Below the pieces are notes generated by a model. That model ran no database searches and was not told the DNA's origin. It saw nothing but the letters and a program-made list of their open reading frames with translations. DNA of 64,000 nt, taken from Lophium mytilinum. Its lineage: Eukaryota. Location of the stretch: contig MU004182.1 of NCBI GenBank assembly GCA_010093605.1, positions 507,502-571,501 on the forward strand, read 5' to 3'. This document shows, in pieces, positions 20,717 through 46,713 of the stretch. Position 1 is the first letter of the stretch. Each line of letters opens with the position of its first letter. Made by a program: the position numbers and the translations under genes.

Positions 20717-23231
20717 ATGGCCGGCATGCTCGGCGATCACGAAGATCGAGGGCCCGTGAGCCCTGGCACTATTGCTTCTGGGACCGCAGACCAGATTGAG
20801 CACGCTATTGACGACGGCGCTGCCGGCGAACCACTCGTTCAGGACCCTCAAGAACTTTTCCAAGGGCCAAATGTGTCCGCACCTCGTACGCCGGTCAATA
20901 AACCGGTCCCTAAGCCTTCACCCCTTGGTAGCCACCCTGTCATATCATCAGATGAAGAGACGGCCCCAGCGCCTCCAGATTTTACGATGCGTGGTATTCA
21001 TATACCAACCCGCACCAGGTGCATATTCCTCACCCTCCCTTCATTCTAATCTACTAATACATCAATCCGACTACAGCAGCAAAACAAAGATAAAGCAGCG
21101 CCGCGTGCGATCTTCCAGTCGAGAGCCCAGAATGTCCAACTCCGTCCCCACTACCCCAGAGTCACGTGAGCGAAGCTCAACGGAATCCATCATGTCTTAT
21201 GCAACCTCAGCTTCTTCGATAATGCTACCGCCACTTCAGACGAGAGGCCCGCCGGACGACGTTGACCGACTCACGCCTCTATACGAGGATGACCCCCAAT
21301 CATTCGACCTACTGGAGGAGCCAAGTGACGACGGTGCAAAAGCTTTCTCAATGGAAACAAGGTCCGAGCAGATGTTCTCGCGAGCACATCTACAGGCTAT
21401 CTTCAAAGACACTTCTCTGCTACTCAATTTCACAAACTTCCTCAGCACCAGCCGGCCTGCTTCTCTCCCAATTCTCATCTACTATTTGGATGCTCTCAAA
21501 GCAACGCGCGCAATCAATTACGCCAATGCTATAGCGGAAGCTCTCGAACCACTGGACGGTCTAGATTTCACCAAACATCCAGCTAGGCCAACCGTCAACT
21601 CGGTACTAGAAGAAAAAGCCAAGGCAGCCTTTGATGTCCTAGTCCGCGAGGATCTCCCTTGTTTCATAGCCCACACCTGGATTCAGACAGTCAGTGTGAG
21701 CATCCGGAAGCGAATCACAGGAAACTTGCCTCCAGCGTTACGAGAGGCATCAGAAGGACTGGCGGAGGTTTTCTGCCTCTCAGATCCGTCAAGACCAGAT
21801 AATCCTATAGTGTTCGCGTCAGAAGGTAATCTCTTCTTGCTACCTGTACGGCCGAACGTCAGCTAAACCGACGCGGCAGAATTTCATCGAACTACGCAAT
21901 ATGGAGTCAGTTACGCAATTGGCCGAAATTGTCGATTCCTTCAAGGTCCGAAGACGAACCGCTCTAGCGCTACGCGCATACGTAAAGCGATTGAAGCTGG
22001 AAAGGAAGTCAACGAAGTGTTCCTCAACTAGTAGGTTGCTGTACCAGATCCCACTAGGCTTTGCTAACCTCCGCAGCCGTCGGGATGGCTCCCCATTCAT
22101 GAATCTTCTGATGTGTGCCCCGCTCTTTGATAGTCGCGGGAAACTTCGCTACTTCATCGGGGCGCAAGTTGACGTGAGCGGTCTTGTCAAAGACTGCACT
22201 GATCTGGAAGCGCTACAGCGCATAGTCGACAAAGAAAATAACAGTGCAGACTCAGACATGCCCGAAGTAGCAAAAGACGAGTTCCAAGAACTCAGCGAAA
22301 TGTTCAATGTCGCCGAACTAGACACGGTGCGAAAGCACGGTGGAAGGATGCACCGAGAACACGTCGACGACGACGACCAGAGCTCAATCGCCCATCGCCC
22401 GCGGCTCCTGCTCCGAGACTCGGGCGGGATGGAGTCCACACCAGTGAGAATGCCGTCTTCGAAATCAGACGGACGATTATCTGGAGTGTATAAAAACGTA
22501 TGTCATCCTCTCACGTTCATATTAAAGCTAGAATTTACTAACCTCACAACTCACAGTACCTACTCATCCGCCCCGCCCCTTCGCTTCGCATTCTCTTCAC
22601 TTCTCCATCTCTCCGCGTCCCAGGCATTTTGCAATCACCCTTCCTCTCTCGCATCGGCGGCTCTCCGCGCGTCCGCGAATCTCTCGCTGTTGCACTCGCA
22701 GACGGTTCCCGCGGCGTCACTGCCAAGATCCGATGGCTGACGACTCCCACCACCAACTCATCCGAGACCTCCGACGAAGGCCGCAGCAGATGGATTCACT
22801 GCACGCCACTCCTCGGCGCCGGCGGTCGCGTGGGCGTATGGATGGTCGTGCTCGTCGACGACGAGAGCGAAAACGGGCGCGTGCGGAAATTCCGCGAGGC
22901 GCCGCCTGTAGCGAAAGAGATCAGGAGGCTGGGCGGTAGGAACGATTTCGAGAGCACCATGCCCAACGTTGATGGCTACAGCGATGAGTTGTTCGGCGAA
23001 GTCGCGAGTGTGGAAAGGGATGCACGGAGGAATGGGAGGGTCATCCCGGCTTCGCCTATCACGCCGACGAGGAACGGGTTTGCAGCGCAGATGCCGTTTG
23101 ATGGGGTTATGCGGCCGGGGAGCTCGAGGAGTGTGCAGCGCGCGGTGAGTCCCGGGTATGGGTCTGGGTGGGAGATGCGGACGAATATGGGAAGTGCCGA
23201 GGGTAGTATTGCGTCGTTTGCATTGACTTGA
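20717..23231 (+). CDS. RGS-LOV-type blue-light photoreceptor (RGS-like N domain + LOV + C-terminal domain)
   Basis: EGLAEVFCLSDPSRPDNPIVFASE | EFHRTTQYGVSYAIGRNCRFLQGPKT (GRNCRFLQG at 21921-21947, in a short exon absent from the ORF track) | RRDGSPFMNLLMCAPLFDSRGKLRYFIGAQVDVS. Upstream helical region FTNFL...YYLDALKA...AINYANAIAE and downstream WIHCTPLLG...GVWMVV block. The start codon is uncertain. Confidence 0.88.
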
Positions 23232-23568
23232 GAGAGGAGGGAAATATAAGAAACGCGTTAGGCAACATATTGGATGACGCGGATTGGGATGGTACGATTG
23301 GGAGGAGGCACTCTGCTGGCGGCTATATACCCACGGCTGGGAGGGCGTACATTTGGTTTTTTGAGCATCTGAAACATCATCTATTGCTTGTTTGGGTCTA
23401 TATAAATCTAGAGAGCTATTTGAATATCATACCTTTGTACACATATTCACTCGCTTCAGAGCTCTCAACTAGCATCTCCGCCCCCACCCTGCTGCCTAGC
23501 TCCTCTACCCCTCACCTACCTCGAAGTCCCACACCTAACAAACTGTATTATTTCCCAACGAGCGGTAA

Positions 23569-23644
23569 TCCGGTGTGGTTTAGTTGGTTATAATTCGAGG
23601 TACCTTTCATCCCCGAGACCCTGGTTCGATCCCAGGCGCCGGAC
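23569..23644 (+). tRNA. tRNA-like gene copy 1 (Glu/Asp-type body, 10-nt anticodon loop containing CT-TTC-AT)
   Basis: Acceptor stem TCCGGTG/CGCCGGA, A box TGGTTTAGTTGG, T arm CCTGG-TTCGATC-CCAGG, 4-nt variable loop AGAC. Anticodon stem CGAGG/CCCCG (1 mismatch) encloses TACCTTTCAT. T5 terminator at 23683-23687. Confidence 0.7.
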
Positions 23645-23831
23645 GCTTGACGTATACCTTTGCTGTTTGGTGTCCCCGTTTCTTTTTGAACGGTACCTAG
23701 AACTAGAAGGGTAAGCCCCACAGAGTTCTCTTCGTGACGTGTCCTAGGCCGCTTGGACGGAAAGTATTGGCTGGACGCTACGTAGGCAGCCTTGTACGCT
23801 TTTATTTTGCGGGTGGTGAATACCTTTCCAA

Positions 23832-23907
23832 TCCGGTGTGGTTTAGTTGGTTATAATTCTAGGCTTTTTGCTACCTCGAGACCCTGGTTCGATCCCAGGC
23901 GCCGGAC
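23832..23907 (+). tRNA. tRNA-like gene copy 2 (non-canonical 10-nt anticodon loop; possibly pseudo)
   Basis: Acceptor, D and T arms are identical to copy 1. Anticodon arm is CTAGG-CTTTTTGCTA-CCTCG, which contains an internal T5 run. Confidence 0.65.
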
Positions 23908-24140
23908 GCATTGCGTGTACCTTTGCTGTTCCGTGTCGTCTACAGCCCCTATTTCTTTTGACCTACATAGGTAATAGGTAGAGGATAGGGTGGGGCAATT
24001 CCACCTGACTTGGCTGTGGGGTGGGCCGCCCCACACTGTTCCCCATTCGTGTCACGTTCAGCCCCAAACAAGATACCCCCAAAGCTAAGCCTACATAGCC
24101 ATGTACGTTTTTAATTTTCAGGGATAGCGAATTCTTTTCA

Positions 24141-24292
24141 TCCGGTGTGGTTTAGTTGGTTATAATTCGGTAGGTGGACTTTCCTGCCTCCGCGAGAGTT
24201 TGATGAGTACGAAAAGTGCGAAAAGAAGCTGATGATGTGGGCGGTAGGGTGCCTTCCTGCTCGAGACCCTGGTTCGATCCCAGGCGCCGGAC
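24141..24292 (+). tRNA. tRNA-like gene copy 3 with ~78-nt insert in the anticodon arm
   Basis: The 5' half (24141-24168) and 3' half (24262-24291) are identical to copies 1 and 2. The insert 24170-24247 reads GTAGGT...GCTGAT...TAG. T5 terminator at 24307-24311. Confidence 0.65.
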
Positions 24293-24806
24293 TTTGCGGG
24301 CGATGATTTTTGTGTTTTTGCGAGTCGGGGACAGGTTCGATCGTTTTTGGAAACGGCGATGGTGATGATGATCTTTTGGGCGAGCGGGTGGAATTGAGGT
24401 GGTTGGTTTAGTTGGGCGTGATGGGGTTAATGAGATAAGGAATTTAATCAGAGAATTTGGCGTGAACGCTGATAATGGTGGGAGCCTTTCACTTTCAGAG
24501 ATGGTCTTCGTTTGCTTCTAGCGGCTGGACAATGTCGTATGAGCACGACGTCTGTTTCGTTGTAGGATGGATGGTGAGGCGTGATGGTTGATGAAGCTTG
24601 AGAGCGACTGTCGGGTTCAGATTGATGATATCGAGCGAGTCTACATCATGAAGGATGAAACATCATCTGAGTTAGTGAACAAGATTGAGGAAAGAAGAGT
24701 CGGAACTAGTTGAGTGCAAGAGTTTTACTCAATTGCCATGTGACATAGCCGAAAGGGGCTAGGCATTTTCTATGCTATCGTCCCTCCATCTGTCTCCTTT
24801 CTTCAT

Positions 24807-41782: not shown

Positions 41783-44700
41783 ATGGACGACAAATCCCCG
41801 ACACGCAAACGCATCGCTCGAAGGAATGGCCAGCTGAATGCGGGCGGAAGTGGAACCGGGACTAGCAATGATGAGAAAAGCAAAAATATGGACGGCCAGA
41901 GCGACAGCGGCGACGACACATTTGAGAGAGCCGTGAAGACGCCGCTCGATCCCAAACCACCCCGCACCGCCGGAAGAAATCACGTTGTTTCGGAGAGGAC
42001 GAGGGCGAGCAGGATTGAAGCTCAGAGACCGCAGTCGCAGCCTTTGAGGACAGTTTCGGTACGTTCAAGCCCGTCGTAATCGACGTACCTGAAGTCTGAC
42101 ATATAAATCGCGAACAGCCAGTTTCTACAAGACCCTTTGGCTCAGCTGCTGGGACTTCCAGACCTTTCTACCCCTCCGGTTATACTACTCCCATTCCTGT
42201 ACCACACAACGAGTTCCACGTACCCAGTTACATGAAACCCACGGAAGCTCATAAGAGGAAGGCCAAGCCACGAGTACCAAAACCATCGACACTTCCTCCT
42301 ATAATCACCTCGAATAATGTCGAAGGACACCCTTCTCAAAGAACACGCGAAGATACGCAGAATCCAGTAACACAGCTCCAGAAAACTCTCGCGCAAGGTG
42401 GTAAAGACCCCAAAAATGTTCCACCTGTGCGCCCAAACACTTCGCCAGGCAAACTCAATATAACCAATGGTAAAGAGGTAGTCAAGGATGAAGAACAGAC
42501 GGAGCCTCAAACGTCCCTATGGGGGCACACTAGAAACTCAGACTCATTCCCGGTGTGGAGCAACGGCCATTCGCCACGATCATCGTACCATGCGCCTGAA
42601 GACTTTGTAAAACCCTTGCGACCAGCTTTGTGGGCGCATCCGGAAGCCTCAGCATCCAAGCAACCAATACACCAGGATGGAAAACTCGAGTCTCCCAGGG
42701 TTTATGTATATCCAAGCAGTCAATCAGATGTACAACAGCGGCCTTCCTCGGTTGGTATCGATAAACATGACCCTCCACCACCTTCTTTTGAAAGACCGGG
42801 TCCGCTTAATGTCAACGGTTTCGAGCAACAGGGTCGGATTTCTACCCTAACACCACCAAGACCAACCAAAGAAAATGGCATCGGACCGTTGCCGGGTTCG
42901 AATACTTCTACGAATATCGAGGAATCGGAGGAGCTTCAGAGCGAAGAGGAGGACGATGAGTTGATGAACAGGGTGAAAAGGATCAAAGCACGGCACCAAG
43001 AGATGCAACGGATATTTGATCAACTTGGTAATCACCCTCCAGTTGAAGATCATAGAGAAATACCCAGCATAGAGGAGAATAGTGTAGGCGAGGCATCCCC
43101 GAGCATTCAAGCTGAAAGTCCCAGAAAGACACCTAGTCTAGAGAGAAATAGTGTAAGCCAAGCAACGCCGAGCAGCAGCAGTAGTAGTTCTTTCGTTACG
43201 AATCCAGAAGACTCCCCTAATGTACCGCGGTCGATGAAAGAGAAAGAGATTCAAGATGAAATATATGTGGACCAGGGGGCGACATACTCAGTGACAAAAA
43301 CATTTGCGGCATCTCCTGGTCGCAGCCACAGCGAAGAAGATGATCCTGGTACTCATCCAGCTCGTCAATCAAGACCTCAATCGACCGACACTGTTCTTTA
43401 CATGCCACCTTCGCCCCAACAGCCGCAGCCATTTACTACGAATAACGAGTCCACCGATCATTACGTAGCCCCAATCGATTTATTAGCACCGGCGTTGACT
43501 GGACAAAGCCGACATCGTCGTGGAGGCAGGCCTCCGCAGCATATCAATAGGCGTGCACTACGACCATTAACGATCTCTATTCCAAGGGCACCATCTGAGC
43601 CATCATCCCCGCCTATATGGGACATAATAGACCCATCCCCACTTTTATCACCATCTTCATCTAGCCCTTCAAGTCCGCGCAGCTCCGATAGGCGTTATCC
43701 ATCATTTGGGTCCGGGCTCTGGTGGCTCGAACCTCCAATTGCCATCTCACCAACCATATACGCCCTTCGCGGCCTTCACCGCCACCGTCACCCTTCCCTT
43801 CCATCGACTCCAACAACATCAAGTTCCACGTTTCCAAGTCTATCGGAGGGACCGTCGCCAGAAGCATCGCCCTCGCCGCCAAAGTCAACTTCCGAGTTAG
43901 AATCGTCCCTAGATTCGTCTGCCATACCCCCTCCACTTCATATCCATTCTCATCATGAGCCATCCAGAGTGGGTCTGACTGGCGCGTGCACACATTGCTC
44001 TCAGCATTGCCCCCGTCCCGAGGATCCTCCCGAATATCTTGTGCCCAATGCGCACACGCATATGAAGATCTTCATCCTCAACCTTGCGTTCATTCGAGCT
44101 TTGGCTATCATGGAAAGCGATCCGATCAAAGTGCTTAGTCTGATGATATACAAAGCGCTGCCTATCGCACAAGGCATTGAGGATCCCATAGCCGAGGCGA
44201 GATGCTGGTATTGGATTGGAAAGGCGGAAGCTACTAGGGGTGAATGGGGCGAGAGCTTGAGAGCATTGAAGAAGGCAATGGAGTTGGGGCTTGCAGGAAA
44301 AGAGCGATACACGGAGGGCCGAGAGATTCAGAACCTGCTGGATATAGTGACGAGATGGTACAAGGCGGCAAACGCGGCAGCCGATGGTGAAGAGGAGGCC
44401 GATGATCCATTGCTTGGGTTTTCAGGCGCGGCTAAGACTGAAATACTTCGGAGTGAAGGGGTGCCGGGTTTATTGCCTCCGGTCGGAGCAATCGGATATC
44501 TTCGAACGAACATCGAGAACTCTAGAGCGAAGAAGGAAGATATCAAACGAAAAACACATGAGATGGACGAAACGCGGCGGAATGAGGTCAAGGATTACTT
44601 AATGGGCCTGGAGGATTCGCATGTCAATGGGTCTTACTCGCCTACGCCATCCCAGTCCTCTGCGTCAGGATCCTCCACCGTGGCACCAATATCATCTCCA

Positions 44701-46713
44701 GAACTTGTACAAGTATCCCCAGACCAGCCAACATATGGAGGAGCGGTTGCTATAATAGATTGGAATAAGTCGAGGCAGTCCAGCATTGGGTCGGACGCTA
44801 CGACGATCGCGAACGGGCAGGCCTCAGGGCAGTCCAGTAACGAATCAGCTGTAACAGGTACGACTTTGGTGAATTCAGGGAGCTCCGTTGGGGAATCTAA
44901 GAAAGCAAACAACAACGTCCAAAACTCTTTGCCGAGCTTGATGAAAGCCAGCATCGAACCGGAAATCTCACGAGCTCGTCCTAGATATACGAGAGTAAGG
45001 AAATGGCGTTCTTCATCTTCGTCTGGTAGTAGCGAGGGGAGAGAGCGGCGTAAGCTCGAGCACGAGCACGGTCGTAAGGAACCGCCCTCAATCGAATGGG
45101 AGCACGCATCACTCCATCCCGGAAGTGGGAAATCAGGCCTTGTAAGTGTACCGAATGGGCAGCACGAACCAAATTGGGAGACGGTCACCGAGGCTCAGAA
45201 AGAGGACACTATTAGCGAAGAGGGCGAAGGAAGTGACACAGGAAGTATCAACTCCTCTAAGACGGTCACAGCATCCGAAAAGACATCGCCTACGACGGCG
45301 CGAATCAATAAGCTTTTCATGGGCAGTGATACAGAAAGTATTGCAGGGTCCGGGGCATCTCCCTCAGATGAGACCTCCCAGCAAGTAGAACCCACAACCG
45401 GCTTAGTACCATCATTTTCAGAGCCTGGCCGAATTGCAAGTTGGCAGAAAGGTGTTTATCGCAAGCCTAAACCACTTGACATCTCGATATCTCAGTCAAC
45501 GGAGTCACCCTTGGCTGATTATCCTATTGTGGGTCGAACCCAAACTCCGAATACCCTATTTCCTCCATTCGATCATAGTTATTCCCCTCCCAGAACTGCG
45601 AATGGAACACCCCACACCCCTCAAGCACTCACGCCATCCCAGACAATGCCACCAGGGTGGACTGGCTCTGTGCCTCAAGGACAGGCGATCTTGTTAGGGC
45701 AAGTTGGTAGTCAACTTCTAGTGGCCTCTCGTGTCCATCCACAAAATGGCTGGCTTTCCAGACCGCCTCGTCGCCCACTCCGGCCTAACTCATCGTCGCA
45801 GCCACCAAATTCAGCGCCCCTACCAGAGTCCGATTCTCACTCAACTATGCTGCAAGGACAGGAGGATTTGACTCGGCGTCAAACATTGCCTTCTAGTCTC
45901 GAGTCTCAAGACGTTACACCTTCGGAAGTTCCGACTTCGCCTTCTAGCGTCTCGACCACCTTCAACATCAGCGACCTTGATGACCTCTCGCCACCGCTCC
46001 GGAGAACGTCTTATCAGCTTCAGCGCGAGGGGGAAGAGCGGCAGCAACTGAGAGAGTTACTATCATCTCCCCCCGCATCGGATATCTCAACGAACGCCTC
46101 CGGATCAGAAGCCGGCTCCCTTTCTGATACCGACGAATCAGACCAGAATATCCAAGAACTTATATATCCAGGAGCCGGCGCTGGAAGGGCGAGAAGAACA
46201 AGCCTCGCACCTATCGTGACAACACCACGACCCAAAGGCCGCCACGCCATCGTCAGCCTCGAGTCTTCACCTAACAGCCCGATCATGGGCATCGTCGACC
46301 TCGAACCCGAGCTGCATTGGGAACCGCCAGATGAAACGCGGGCGAGTCCTCTAGCCCACTTGAACAGGTCAGGCGACCGCGACCGGGACCGCAATCGCAA
46401 CCGCAGTAGACCTGGGCCCGAGCCCATTCGCCTTACCTACAGACAGTTGGACCGGATAGCCACGATCTACTATGAGCAAAATGAACGAATGGTGATGGAG
46501 GATTTGAATCATCTAGTGAGATCCGGTCGTGATTTGGCTAAGTACCAATATGACGAGAACAAGGTGAGAGACCGGGGGTATCTGACCGATTGGGATTGGA
46601 ATGAACTACAGTTGGCTGGGCCTGAGGAACTTTACCTGATGGTCAAGGCGTATGGTGATATTCGGCATGGGCTTGAGACTCGATTGCGCCAATTGGAGGA
46701 CGCGTCTCCTTGA
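41783..46713 (+). CDS. Large (~1600 aa) Ser/Pro-rich disordered protein with a central TPR-like helical segment
   Basis: 1493-codon ORF plus an upstream exon joined by intron 42060-42117 (GTACGT..CTGAC..CAG). Helical block IAEARCWYWIGKAEATRGEWGESLRALKKAMELG. Confidence 0.75.

Follow-up and report, generated by a model that had tools for sequence, protein, structure and literature searches.

Tandem tRNA-Glu-derived genes in the fungus Lophium mytilinum: candidate non-decoding, tRNA-shaped RNAs, one of them probably spliced

Introduction

Non-decoding look-alikes of tRNA are known in mammals, viruses and bacteria. In mammals, RNase P and RNase Z cut the tRNA-like structures mascRNA (from MALAT1) and MEN-beta out of long non-coding RNAs (lncRNAs) made by RNA polymerase II (Pol II). 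MEN-beta is mentioned in PMC10275265. Here we describe an array of tRNA-like genes in a stretch of 64,000 nucleotides (nt) from Lophium mytilinum (GenBank assembly GCA_010093605.1, contig MU004182.1, positions 507,502 to 571,501), the whole of which is called the window below. Our reading, to which we give a probability of about one half, is that three tandem copies encode non-decoding, tRNA-Glu-derived, tRNA-shaped RNAs whose body is under selection and whose anticodon arm is free to change, the third copy probably being spliced. These RNAs would resemble mascRNA and MEN-beta in the tRNA-shaped body, the non-decoding anticodon region, the recognition by tRNA enzymes and perhaps the origin from a longer transcript. 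However, the two known RNAs are single elements at the 3′ end of a conserved lncRNA, whereas the array consists of tandem, recent tRNA-Glu derivatives with intact A and B boxes and lies in a fungus. No description of a selected, tandem, non-decoding tRNA-like family in fungi was found in the literature searched.

Three other described systems touch on the locus. Introns of the mRNA type have been described (PMC5855946) in the fission-yeast U6 gene, which RNA polymerase III (Pol III) transcribes, and in U1, U2 and U5 of Rhodotorula, i.e., in small nuclear RNA (snRNA) genes. Intron gain through tandem duplication of an AGGT-containing segment is reported in PMC3265369 and PMC4974935. Finally, fungi carry tRNA-derived short interspersed elements (SINEs), such as the AfuSINE2 families (PMC5063351).

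Results

Layout of the array and its constant body

The array consists of three intact copies and one decayed unit, spaced by 263, 309 and 256 nt (a period of 256–309 nt):

23569..23644, + strand: copy 1, putative tRNA-Glu-derived gene of 76 nt (ARAGORN, Rfam, sequence reading)
23832..23907, + strand: copy 2, 76 nt (ARAGORN, Rfam, sequence reading)
24141..24292, + strand: copy 3, 152 nt, its halves split by a 93-nt arm that folds as a long irregular hairpin
24395..24531, + strand: copy 4, which has decayed; its homology to copy 3 extends over the insert (alignment)

The original prediction had proposed that the three copies share identical 5′ and 3′ halves, and both halves were found exactly as claimed. 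The window contains three occurrences of the 28-nt 5′ half (23569, 23832, 24141) and as many of the 30-nt 3′ half (23614, 23877, 24262), in each case with 0 mismatches and with any match in 0/100 shuffles. Each 3′ half is followed by the predicted C at the discriminator position, which extends the identical 3′ segment of copies 1–3 to 31 nt and brings the constant halves to 59 nt, identical in 3/3 copies.

The body of these copies is that of a canonical tRNA, with a perfect 7-bp acceptor stem and T arm, a T loop of the TTCRANY type and G18 G19. Every residue with a role in the tertiary core of a tRNA is kept: U8, A14, G15 with C48, G18 G19, G53 with C61 and those of the TTCGATC loop. With the Rfam model RF00005, whose gathering score is 29, copy 1 reaches 39.3 bits and copy 2 reaches 40.4; copy 3 is called neither by Rfam nor by ARAGORN with default settings, and other Rfam families gave only chance-level matches under their gathering scores. 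The A box TGGTTTAGTTGG and the B box GGTTCGATCCC, taken as positions 8–19 and 52–62, respectively, are intact in 3/3 copies, and about 36 of the invariant positions fall outside both boxes, among them the discriminator and each of the two acceptor-stem strands.

The contigs used for comparison come from run X1, which belongs to another study, from run X2, which is possibly the source of the assembly, and from X4 and X5, whose contigs span only small parts of the stretch (X5 is from an organism designated C). The X1 and X2 contigs tile the stretch in abutting pieces with 0 other letters. Since they match it letter for letter, the odd anticodon loops are not an assembly error, a possibility that the original prediction had tied to canonical 7-nt loops in the reads and that is hereby ruled out. 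The depth of the 3′-half 31-mers in X2 is 430, compared with about 151–156 for single-copy sequence, which corresponds to about three copies; copy number outside the window rests on this k-mer depth and on two loose X2 contigs. These two contigs, from other loci, share part of the 5′ half (window 23566–23594, and 23828 onward) and then diverge, and one of them (record 10) matches the first 26 nt of the body with 1 other letter. They are either further family members or real tRNA-Glu genes. Metagenome scans gave 0 matches for a 26-nt pattern from the 5′ half and 7 loci for a 21-nt pattern from the 3′ half, of which one is a bacterial-type tRNA-Asn and six carry the 21-mer only inside unrelated sequence; none of these loci is a relative. 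A string search of the literature found the 21-nt string in 0 papers and an 11-nt string only in 10 unrelated primer matches.

Anticodon arms and descent from tRNA-Glu

As predicted, the anticodon arms comprise two 10-nt loops and one long insert, and none of the three has the canonical arm, in which a 5-bp stem carries a 7-nt loop with U33 and a purine at position 37. In copy 1, the loop consists of TAC followed by CTTTCAT, the latter a perfect 7-nt Glu(UUC) loop, on a stem with one A-C mismatch. The 10-nt loop of copy 2, CTTTTTGCTA, includes a run of five Ts at 23865–23869 and sits on a stem with one U-C mismatch; no reading of it gives U33 together with a purine at 37. The Rfam model places 3 surplus nt in the anticodon loop of both copies, and the two arms match at only 8/17 positions without gaps. 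By default, ARAGORN forces copy 1 to Lys(CUU) and copy 2 to Gln(UUG) on shifted stems and misses copy 3. When introns are allowed (ARAGORN -i), it reads copy 1 as Glu(UUC) with a 3-nt insert at positions 32/33, copy 2 as Ser(GCU) with a 5-nt insert at 31/32 and copy 3 as Gly(GCC) with a 74-nt insert at 35/36, shifted stems being required for the Ser and Gly calls. Eukaryotic tRNA introns sit between positions 37 and 38, according to PMC10275265, the site expected for TSEN-type introns. Because the insert of every copy lies off 37/38, the three cannot be classed as ordinary tRNA genes with an intron, and the anticodon arms of copies 1–3 are predicted to be unable to decode.

The body is of the Glu/Asp type recognised in the original prediction, with a U1-A72 pair and the 4-nt variable loop AGAC, and Glu-type loops are present in copy 1 (CTTTCAT) and copy 4 (CTTTCAC). 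As judged from these features, the array is descended from one tRNA-Glu(UUC) gene.

A side observation concerns the heptamer TACCTTT, which occurs 7 times in the 64-kb window, 5 of them within about 500 nt. These five lie at 23430 (upstream of copy 1), 23601 (its loop), 23655 (its trailer), 23821 (leader of copy 2) and 23918 (trailer of copy 2). Small events of local copying and pasting around the anticodon arm may lie behind this clustering.

A decayed fourth unit and the case for selection

The A-box 12-mer TGGTTTAGTTGG is found a fourth time at 24404 (24404–24415), and four matches occurred in 0/100 shuffles. It marks copy 4, which aligns with copy 3 over 85 matches and 37 mismatches, a score equalled by 0/3000 random pieces of the window. 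The score of the copy 4 insert alone was reached in 94/3000, and its 3′ part alone was not significant (313/2000 draws), so that significance holds only for the collinear whole. Copy 4 retains the CCTTTCAC loop, and its splice signals and B box are eroded. In its 5′ half, 20 positions match, 8 are mismatched and 2 are gap columns; the corresponding figures for the 3′ half are 19, 12 and 6. Among the mismatches between copies 4 and 3, 9/37 are C>T, a mild deamination-like bias that is absent from the flanks of the intact units.

The flanks between units are homologous but diverged, as had been noticed earlier. They are 61–80% identical with indels, a divergence roughly on a par with that of the copy 4 halves, the trailers of copies 1 and 2 matching at 40/50 positions and the leaders of copies 2 and 3 at 34/48. 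Repeat-induced point mutation was considered as the source of this divergence and rejected, as transitions among the flank mismatches (5/10, 7/14 and 6/20) are not in excess.

With copy 4 and the flanks as diverged neutral controls, the zero differences among copies 1–3 indicate purifying selection. By our own arithmetic, the chance of 59 identical sites is about 2e-6 for copies 1 and 2 (at 80%) and about 2e-9 for copies 2 and 3 (at 71%). Neither recent origin nor automatic homogenisation protects the halves, since the halves of copy 4 have decayed. In addition, the same arithmetic gives a chance of about 3e-4 (copies 1 and 2) and 4e-6 (copies 2 and 3) for identity at the roughly 36 non-box positions at flank rates. 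The invariance of these positions and of both acceptor strands suggests selection on the RNA shape and not just on a Pol III/TFIIIC site, and thus points to purifying selection on the whole tRNA body, beyond the A and B boxes. The original prediction had inferred that either the tRNA shape or the Pol III promoter is preserved while decoding is dispensable. The preserved body and the dispensable decoding are borne out with copy 4 and the flanks as controls, but the promoter alternative falls short in view of the invariant non-box positions. Absent from that account were the Glu(UUC) loop of copy 1, the fourth copy, the internal T run of copy 2 and the spliceosome-type interval of copy 3.

A duplication and a GT-AG interval in copy 3

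The long insert claimed for copy 3 is present; however, it proved to be a duplication together with a GT-AG interval rather than a plain insert:

24169..24198 (first copy) and 24243–24267 (second copy), + strand: duplicated anticodon-arm segment GGTAGG...CGAGAG (profile, shuffles)
24170..24247, + strand: 78-nt spliceosome-type interval (signals and one X1 contig that skips it)

A profile of copies 1 and 2 matches copy 3 twice, with positions 1–50 at 24141–24197 and positions 30–76 at 24246–24292, showing that the anticodon arm through CGAGA is doubled (equalled in 0/2000 shuffles). The middle of the insert, about 44 nt, has no detectable source (521/2000 shuffles scored as well), and with this level of tail similarity a degraded whole 3′ half is not supported as the origin of the insert. 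The arm folds into a hairpin of −37.3 kcal/mol (z −2.95, matched by 2/200 shuffles), whose length and stability arise because two copies of one hairpin can pair crosswise. A small nucleolar RNA of the box C/D class was also considered for the insert, in which UGAUGA and CUGA are present, and was rejected, as the insert is too short, has no Rfam match, and strings like GATGA are common in the flank.

The splice consensus motifs are GTRNGT at the donor and CTRAY at the branch point. The interval has GT and AG ends with a GTRNGT-like donor (G/GTAGGT), a branch-like CTGAT at 24229–24233 whose A lies 15 nt before the end, thus a CTRAY motif 10–40 nt before the acceptor (TAG/G), and a length in the range of fungal introns. 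One X1 contig joins 24168 to 24247 and thereby skips 78 nt, the GT..AG ends being one of three equivalent registers; this contig has a depth of 54.7, compared with 56.3 for the unjoined form. No such joint is present in the X2 contigs. A 7-nt direct repeat, CGGTAGG, which deletion or template switching would favour, is not used by the joint. An X5 contig spans 24150–24304 with 4 other letters, and the two of these that are listed (24180 and 24215) lie outside the splice signals. Taken together, copy 3 probably loses a 78-nt GT-AG intron through the spliceosome, as these signals and the joint suggest. With the 78 nt taken out, the arm comes to 18 nt rather than 17, and the anticodon reported by ARAGORN is undetermined and of 2 bases; hand translation found no reading frame with a start codon through the spliced copy. 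The literature searched, which omits most subscription journals, yielded no account of a tRNA gene with an mRNA-type intron.

The probable intron is like the fungal snRNA introns in being of the GT-AG type and in lying within the conserved gene of a structured non-coding RNA, and the known cases show that a Pol III-type gene can carry one. Those RNAs, in contrast, are spliceosomal, and their introns are explained by reverse splicing (PMC5855946), whereas the host in copy 3 is tRNA-derived and the probable intron adjoins a local duplication. The interval also resembles the AGGT-duplication route, in that it begins in one and ends in the other copy of the GGTAGG... duplicate, which supplies GT and AG. 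It differs in that only about 30 nt are demonstrably duplicated, the 44-nt middle having no detectable source, and in that the joint takes the upstream GT, so that 4 nt more are removed than by a precise restoration.

Polymerase signals and contig depth

The signals around the copies are as follows:

23800..23808, + strand: T/A-rich element TTTTATTTT, about 30 nt upstream of copy 2; counterparts at 24108–24118 (copy 3) and 23546–23553 (copy 1)
23683..23687, + strand: T run of copy 1 (T5, at +39); 23956–23959, + strand: T run of copy 2 (T4, at +49)
24307–24311 and 24315–24319, + strand: T runs of copy 3 (T5 at +15 and T5 at +23)

The A and B boxes and downstream T run that the original prediction gave to each copy are therefore all present, but the run of copy 2 is a T4 at +49 and this copy has an additional internal T5. 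In budding yeast, the minimal Pol III terminator is five Ts and efficient termination takes six, as stated in PMC9278858. A spliceosomal intron in copy 3 would suggest, but would not prove, transcription by Pol II: in fission yeast, the U6 gene has such an intron although Pol III transcribes it (PMC5855946).

The contig depth across the locus is uneven in X1 (430, 41, 40, 56, 145, 92) and even in X2 (156, 152, 151, 131). Because of this difference, we tentatively read X1 as RNA; a flat background of about 40 that resembles DNA probably underlies it. The contig with a mean depth of 430 holds a 3′ untranslated region (UTR) and copy 1. The depth then climbs from about 40 to 111–147 at the start of copy 3 and is 92 downstream. 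For the X1 31-mers that copies 1 and 2 have in common in their 3′ halves, the depths add up to 80, which is the background level. These contig depths are means and carry no strand.

Neighbouring genes

The array lies between two convergent genes, a PAS-domain gene with its stop codon at 23229–23231 and a short-chain dehydrogenase (SDR) gene on the minus strand from 24807, with a gap of about 1.5 kb; a sugar transporter gene lies beyond the SDR gene. Domains found in the window besides PAS are Enhancer-of-polycomb-like, sedolisin, major-facilitator sugar transporter and SDR. No polyketide or peptide synthetase was seen among the neighbours in the window, so that the metabolic cluster that the original prediction had placed beside the array was not recovered there; the neighbours are the PAS-domain, SDR and sugar transporter genes, and an insulator beside such a cluster is likewise unsupported.

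The PAS-domain protein clusters with Ascomycota, and its homologue P0008 has 775 amino acids (aa). The gene shifts frame at 22498–22628, where P0008 has 24 residues between aligned blocks, and is thus predicted to contain an intron with its acceptor near 22622–22623. An 888-nt X1 contig ends at 22756 in a coding exon of the gene, just after CTGAC...AG (22736–22757). This end could be an alternative 3′ splice site or an internal transcript start; as support for X1 being RNA it was rejected, since the homologue reads straight through and the end is not a constitutive exon border. Elsewhere in the window, a + strand open reading frame at 42232–46713 (1493 aa) has no Pfam match at E<=0.001.

Discussion

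Proposed explanation

We propose that a four-unit tandem array arose from one tRNA-Glu(UUC) gene and that three units would have been kept as tRNA-shaped RNAs, with acceptor stem, D arm, variable loop, T arm and discriminator C preserved, while the anticodon arm, no longer decoding, would be free to change. Transcribed from its own Pol III promoter or as part of a longer transcript, each RNA would fold into an L-shaped body that may be recognised by RNase P, RNase Z, the CCA-adding enzyme and tRNA export factors, and may thus be excised and stabilised as a small tRNA-like RNA with a variable arm, outside translation. This role is suggested by the conserved parts, whose known binding partners are these enzymes and export factors. 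Copy 3 would in addition be matured by spliceosomal removal of its 78-nt GT-AG intron, which would have arisen beside the internal duplication of the anticodon arm. The nature of X1 as RNA, the polymerase used, processing by RNase P and RNase Z and any cellular role are matters that we infer rather than observe. A more far-reaching version, in which the copies form a family of scaffold RNAs with a body for tRNA processing and export and the anticodon arm as exchangeable cargo, one member being matured by the spliceosome, is tentative and on balance doubtful.

Several observations weigh against the proposal of non-decoding, tRNA-shaped RNAs. The D stem is weak, with one G-U pair, two U-A pairs and one U-U, and the cloverleaf is not recovered by free folding (z scores −0.16 and −0.99). 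Signals for Pol III are mixed, given the T5 inside copy 2 and first T runs that lie 39 and 49 nt past copies 1 and 2. No run is on record as RNA, and the RNA status of X1 is a guess; its depth over copies 1 and 2 equals the spacer depth of about 40, so that expression of neither is shown, and the contigs, the only form of these data, display no mature end, CCA tail or charging. Splicing of copy 3 could be incidental processing of read-through transcripts, and its arm stays non-canonical afterwards. Finally, the material compared comprises one genome and near-identical sequence, which yields no signal of covariation or of conservation across species.

Alternative explanations

Conversion between dispersed tRNA genes is known in fission yeast, and the copies could be dying tRNA-Glu pseudogenes whose halves are held constant by recent duplication or by gene conversion, either among the copies or from a real tRNA-Glu gene. 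This would account for anticodon arms that are ruined in every copy, for the visible decay of copy 4 and for Rfam scores of only about 40 bits, and donor genes may exist, as at least one other contig (record 10 of X2) shares the first 26 nt of the body. We nevertheless consider it unlikely. The flanks are 20–39% diverged with indels, so the duplications are old; a conversion tract across both halves would have copied the arm too, yet the three arms differ (8/17 between copies 1 and 2); halves of 28 and 31 nt would be too short for separate conversion; and unit 4, in the same array, was not rescued. The tRNA shapes might instead be modules in a Pol II transcript, which would be a non-coding RNA of its own or would come from the PAS-domain gene by way of a long 3′ UTR or read-through. 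They would serve mainly as cutting signals at which RNase P and RNase Z define the RNA ends, in the manner of MALAT1 and mascRNA, with small RNAs as by-products. The GT-AG joint of copy 3, the internal T5 of copy 2 and the distant T runs of copies 1 and 2 would fit such an origin, as would the rise in X1 depth from about 40 to 111–147 at copy 3 with 92 downstream, and the depth of 430 over the 3′ UTR and copy 1 against a sum of only 80 for the shared 3′-half 31-mers. However, a spliceosomal intron is compatible with Pol III, as in fission-yeast U6 (PMC5855946), the flat depth of about 40 over the spacers resembles DNA background in means that are blind to strand, the spacers are not conserved between units, and the contigs give no RNA ends, all of which makes this origin quite unlikely in our judgement.

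An element acting at the DNA level, i.e., a row of TFIIIC, TFIIIB and Pol III sites that serves as a chromatin boundary or fork barrier and for which the RNA is irrelevant, appears improbable. Both boxes are intact in 3/3 copies, each copy has a T/A-rich element near −30, the array sits in the roughly 1.5 kb that separate the convergent PAS-domain and SDR genes, and the internal T5 of copy 2 would be immaterial to such a role; but the role leaves unexplained the roughly 36 invariant non-box positions, whose chance identity at flank rates was given above, and the fact that unit 4 keeps its A box yet decayed elsewhere, and no metabolic cluster is evident. It is very improbable that the copies are decoding tRNAs matured by unconventional splicing of 3-nt or 5-nt micro-introns and a 74-nt intron, even though ARAGORN with introns can assign Glu, Ser and Gly and copy 1 without TAC has a textbook Glu loop. 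None of the inserts (0/3) is at 37/38, the sole position given for eukaryotes in PMC10275265, copy 2 lacks a purine at 37 in any reading, the Ser and Gly calls take shifted stems on a Glu-type body, and the joint in copy 3 removes 78 nt rather than 74, leaving an 18-nt arm. A tRNA-derived SINE, whose head the original prediction had listed as a candidate, was rejected. Such elements, like AfuSINE2, have a tRNA-related head with A and B boxes, but they occur in many scattered copies, have a body unrelated to tRNA and show target-site duplications, whereas the array is tandem, its 3′ half is present in about three copies by X2 k-mer depth, all of them local, and both a shared tail and a target-site duplication are absent. 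A SINE, canonical introns and an insulator alone are thus poor fits.

Significance

With its decayed fourth unit as a built-in neutral control, the array offers an unusually clean argument that selection acts on a tRNA body whose anticodon does not work, and the locus is small and easy to delete or probe. The two intron systems, spliceosomal and tRNA, are regarded as unrelated (PMC12530127). If the GT-AG interval of copy 3 is truly spliced, the locus would join these two systems and add a further case of an intron arising beside a local duplication. It would then hold the first mRNA-type intron described in a tRNA-derived gene, linking spliceosomal and tRNA maturation in one RNA.

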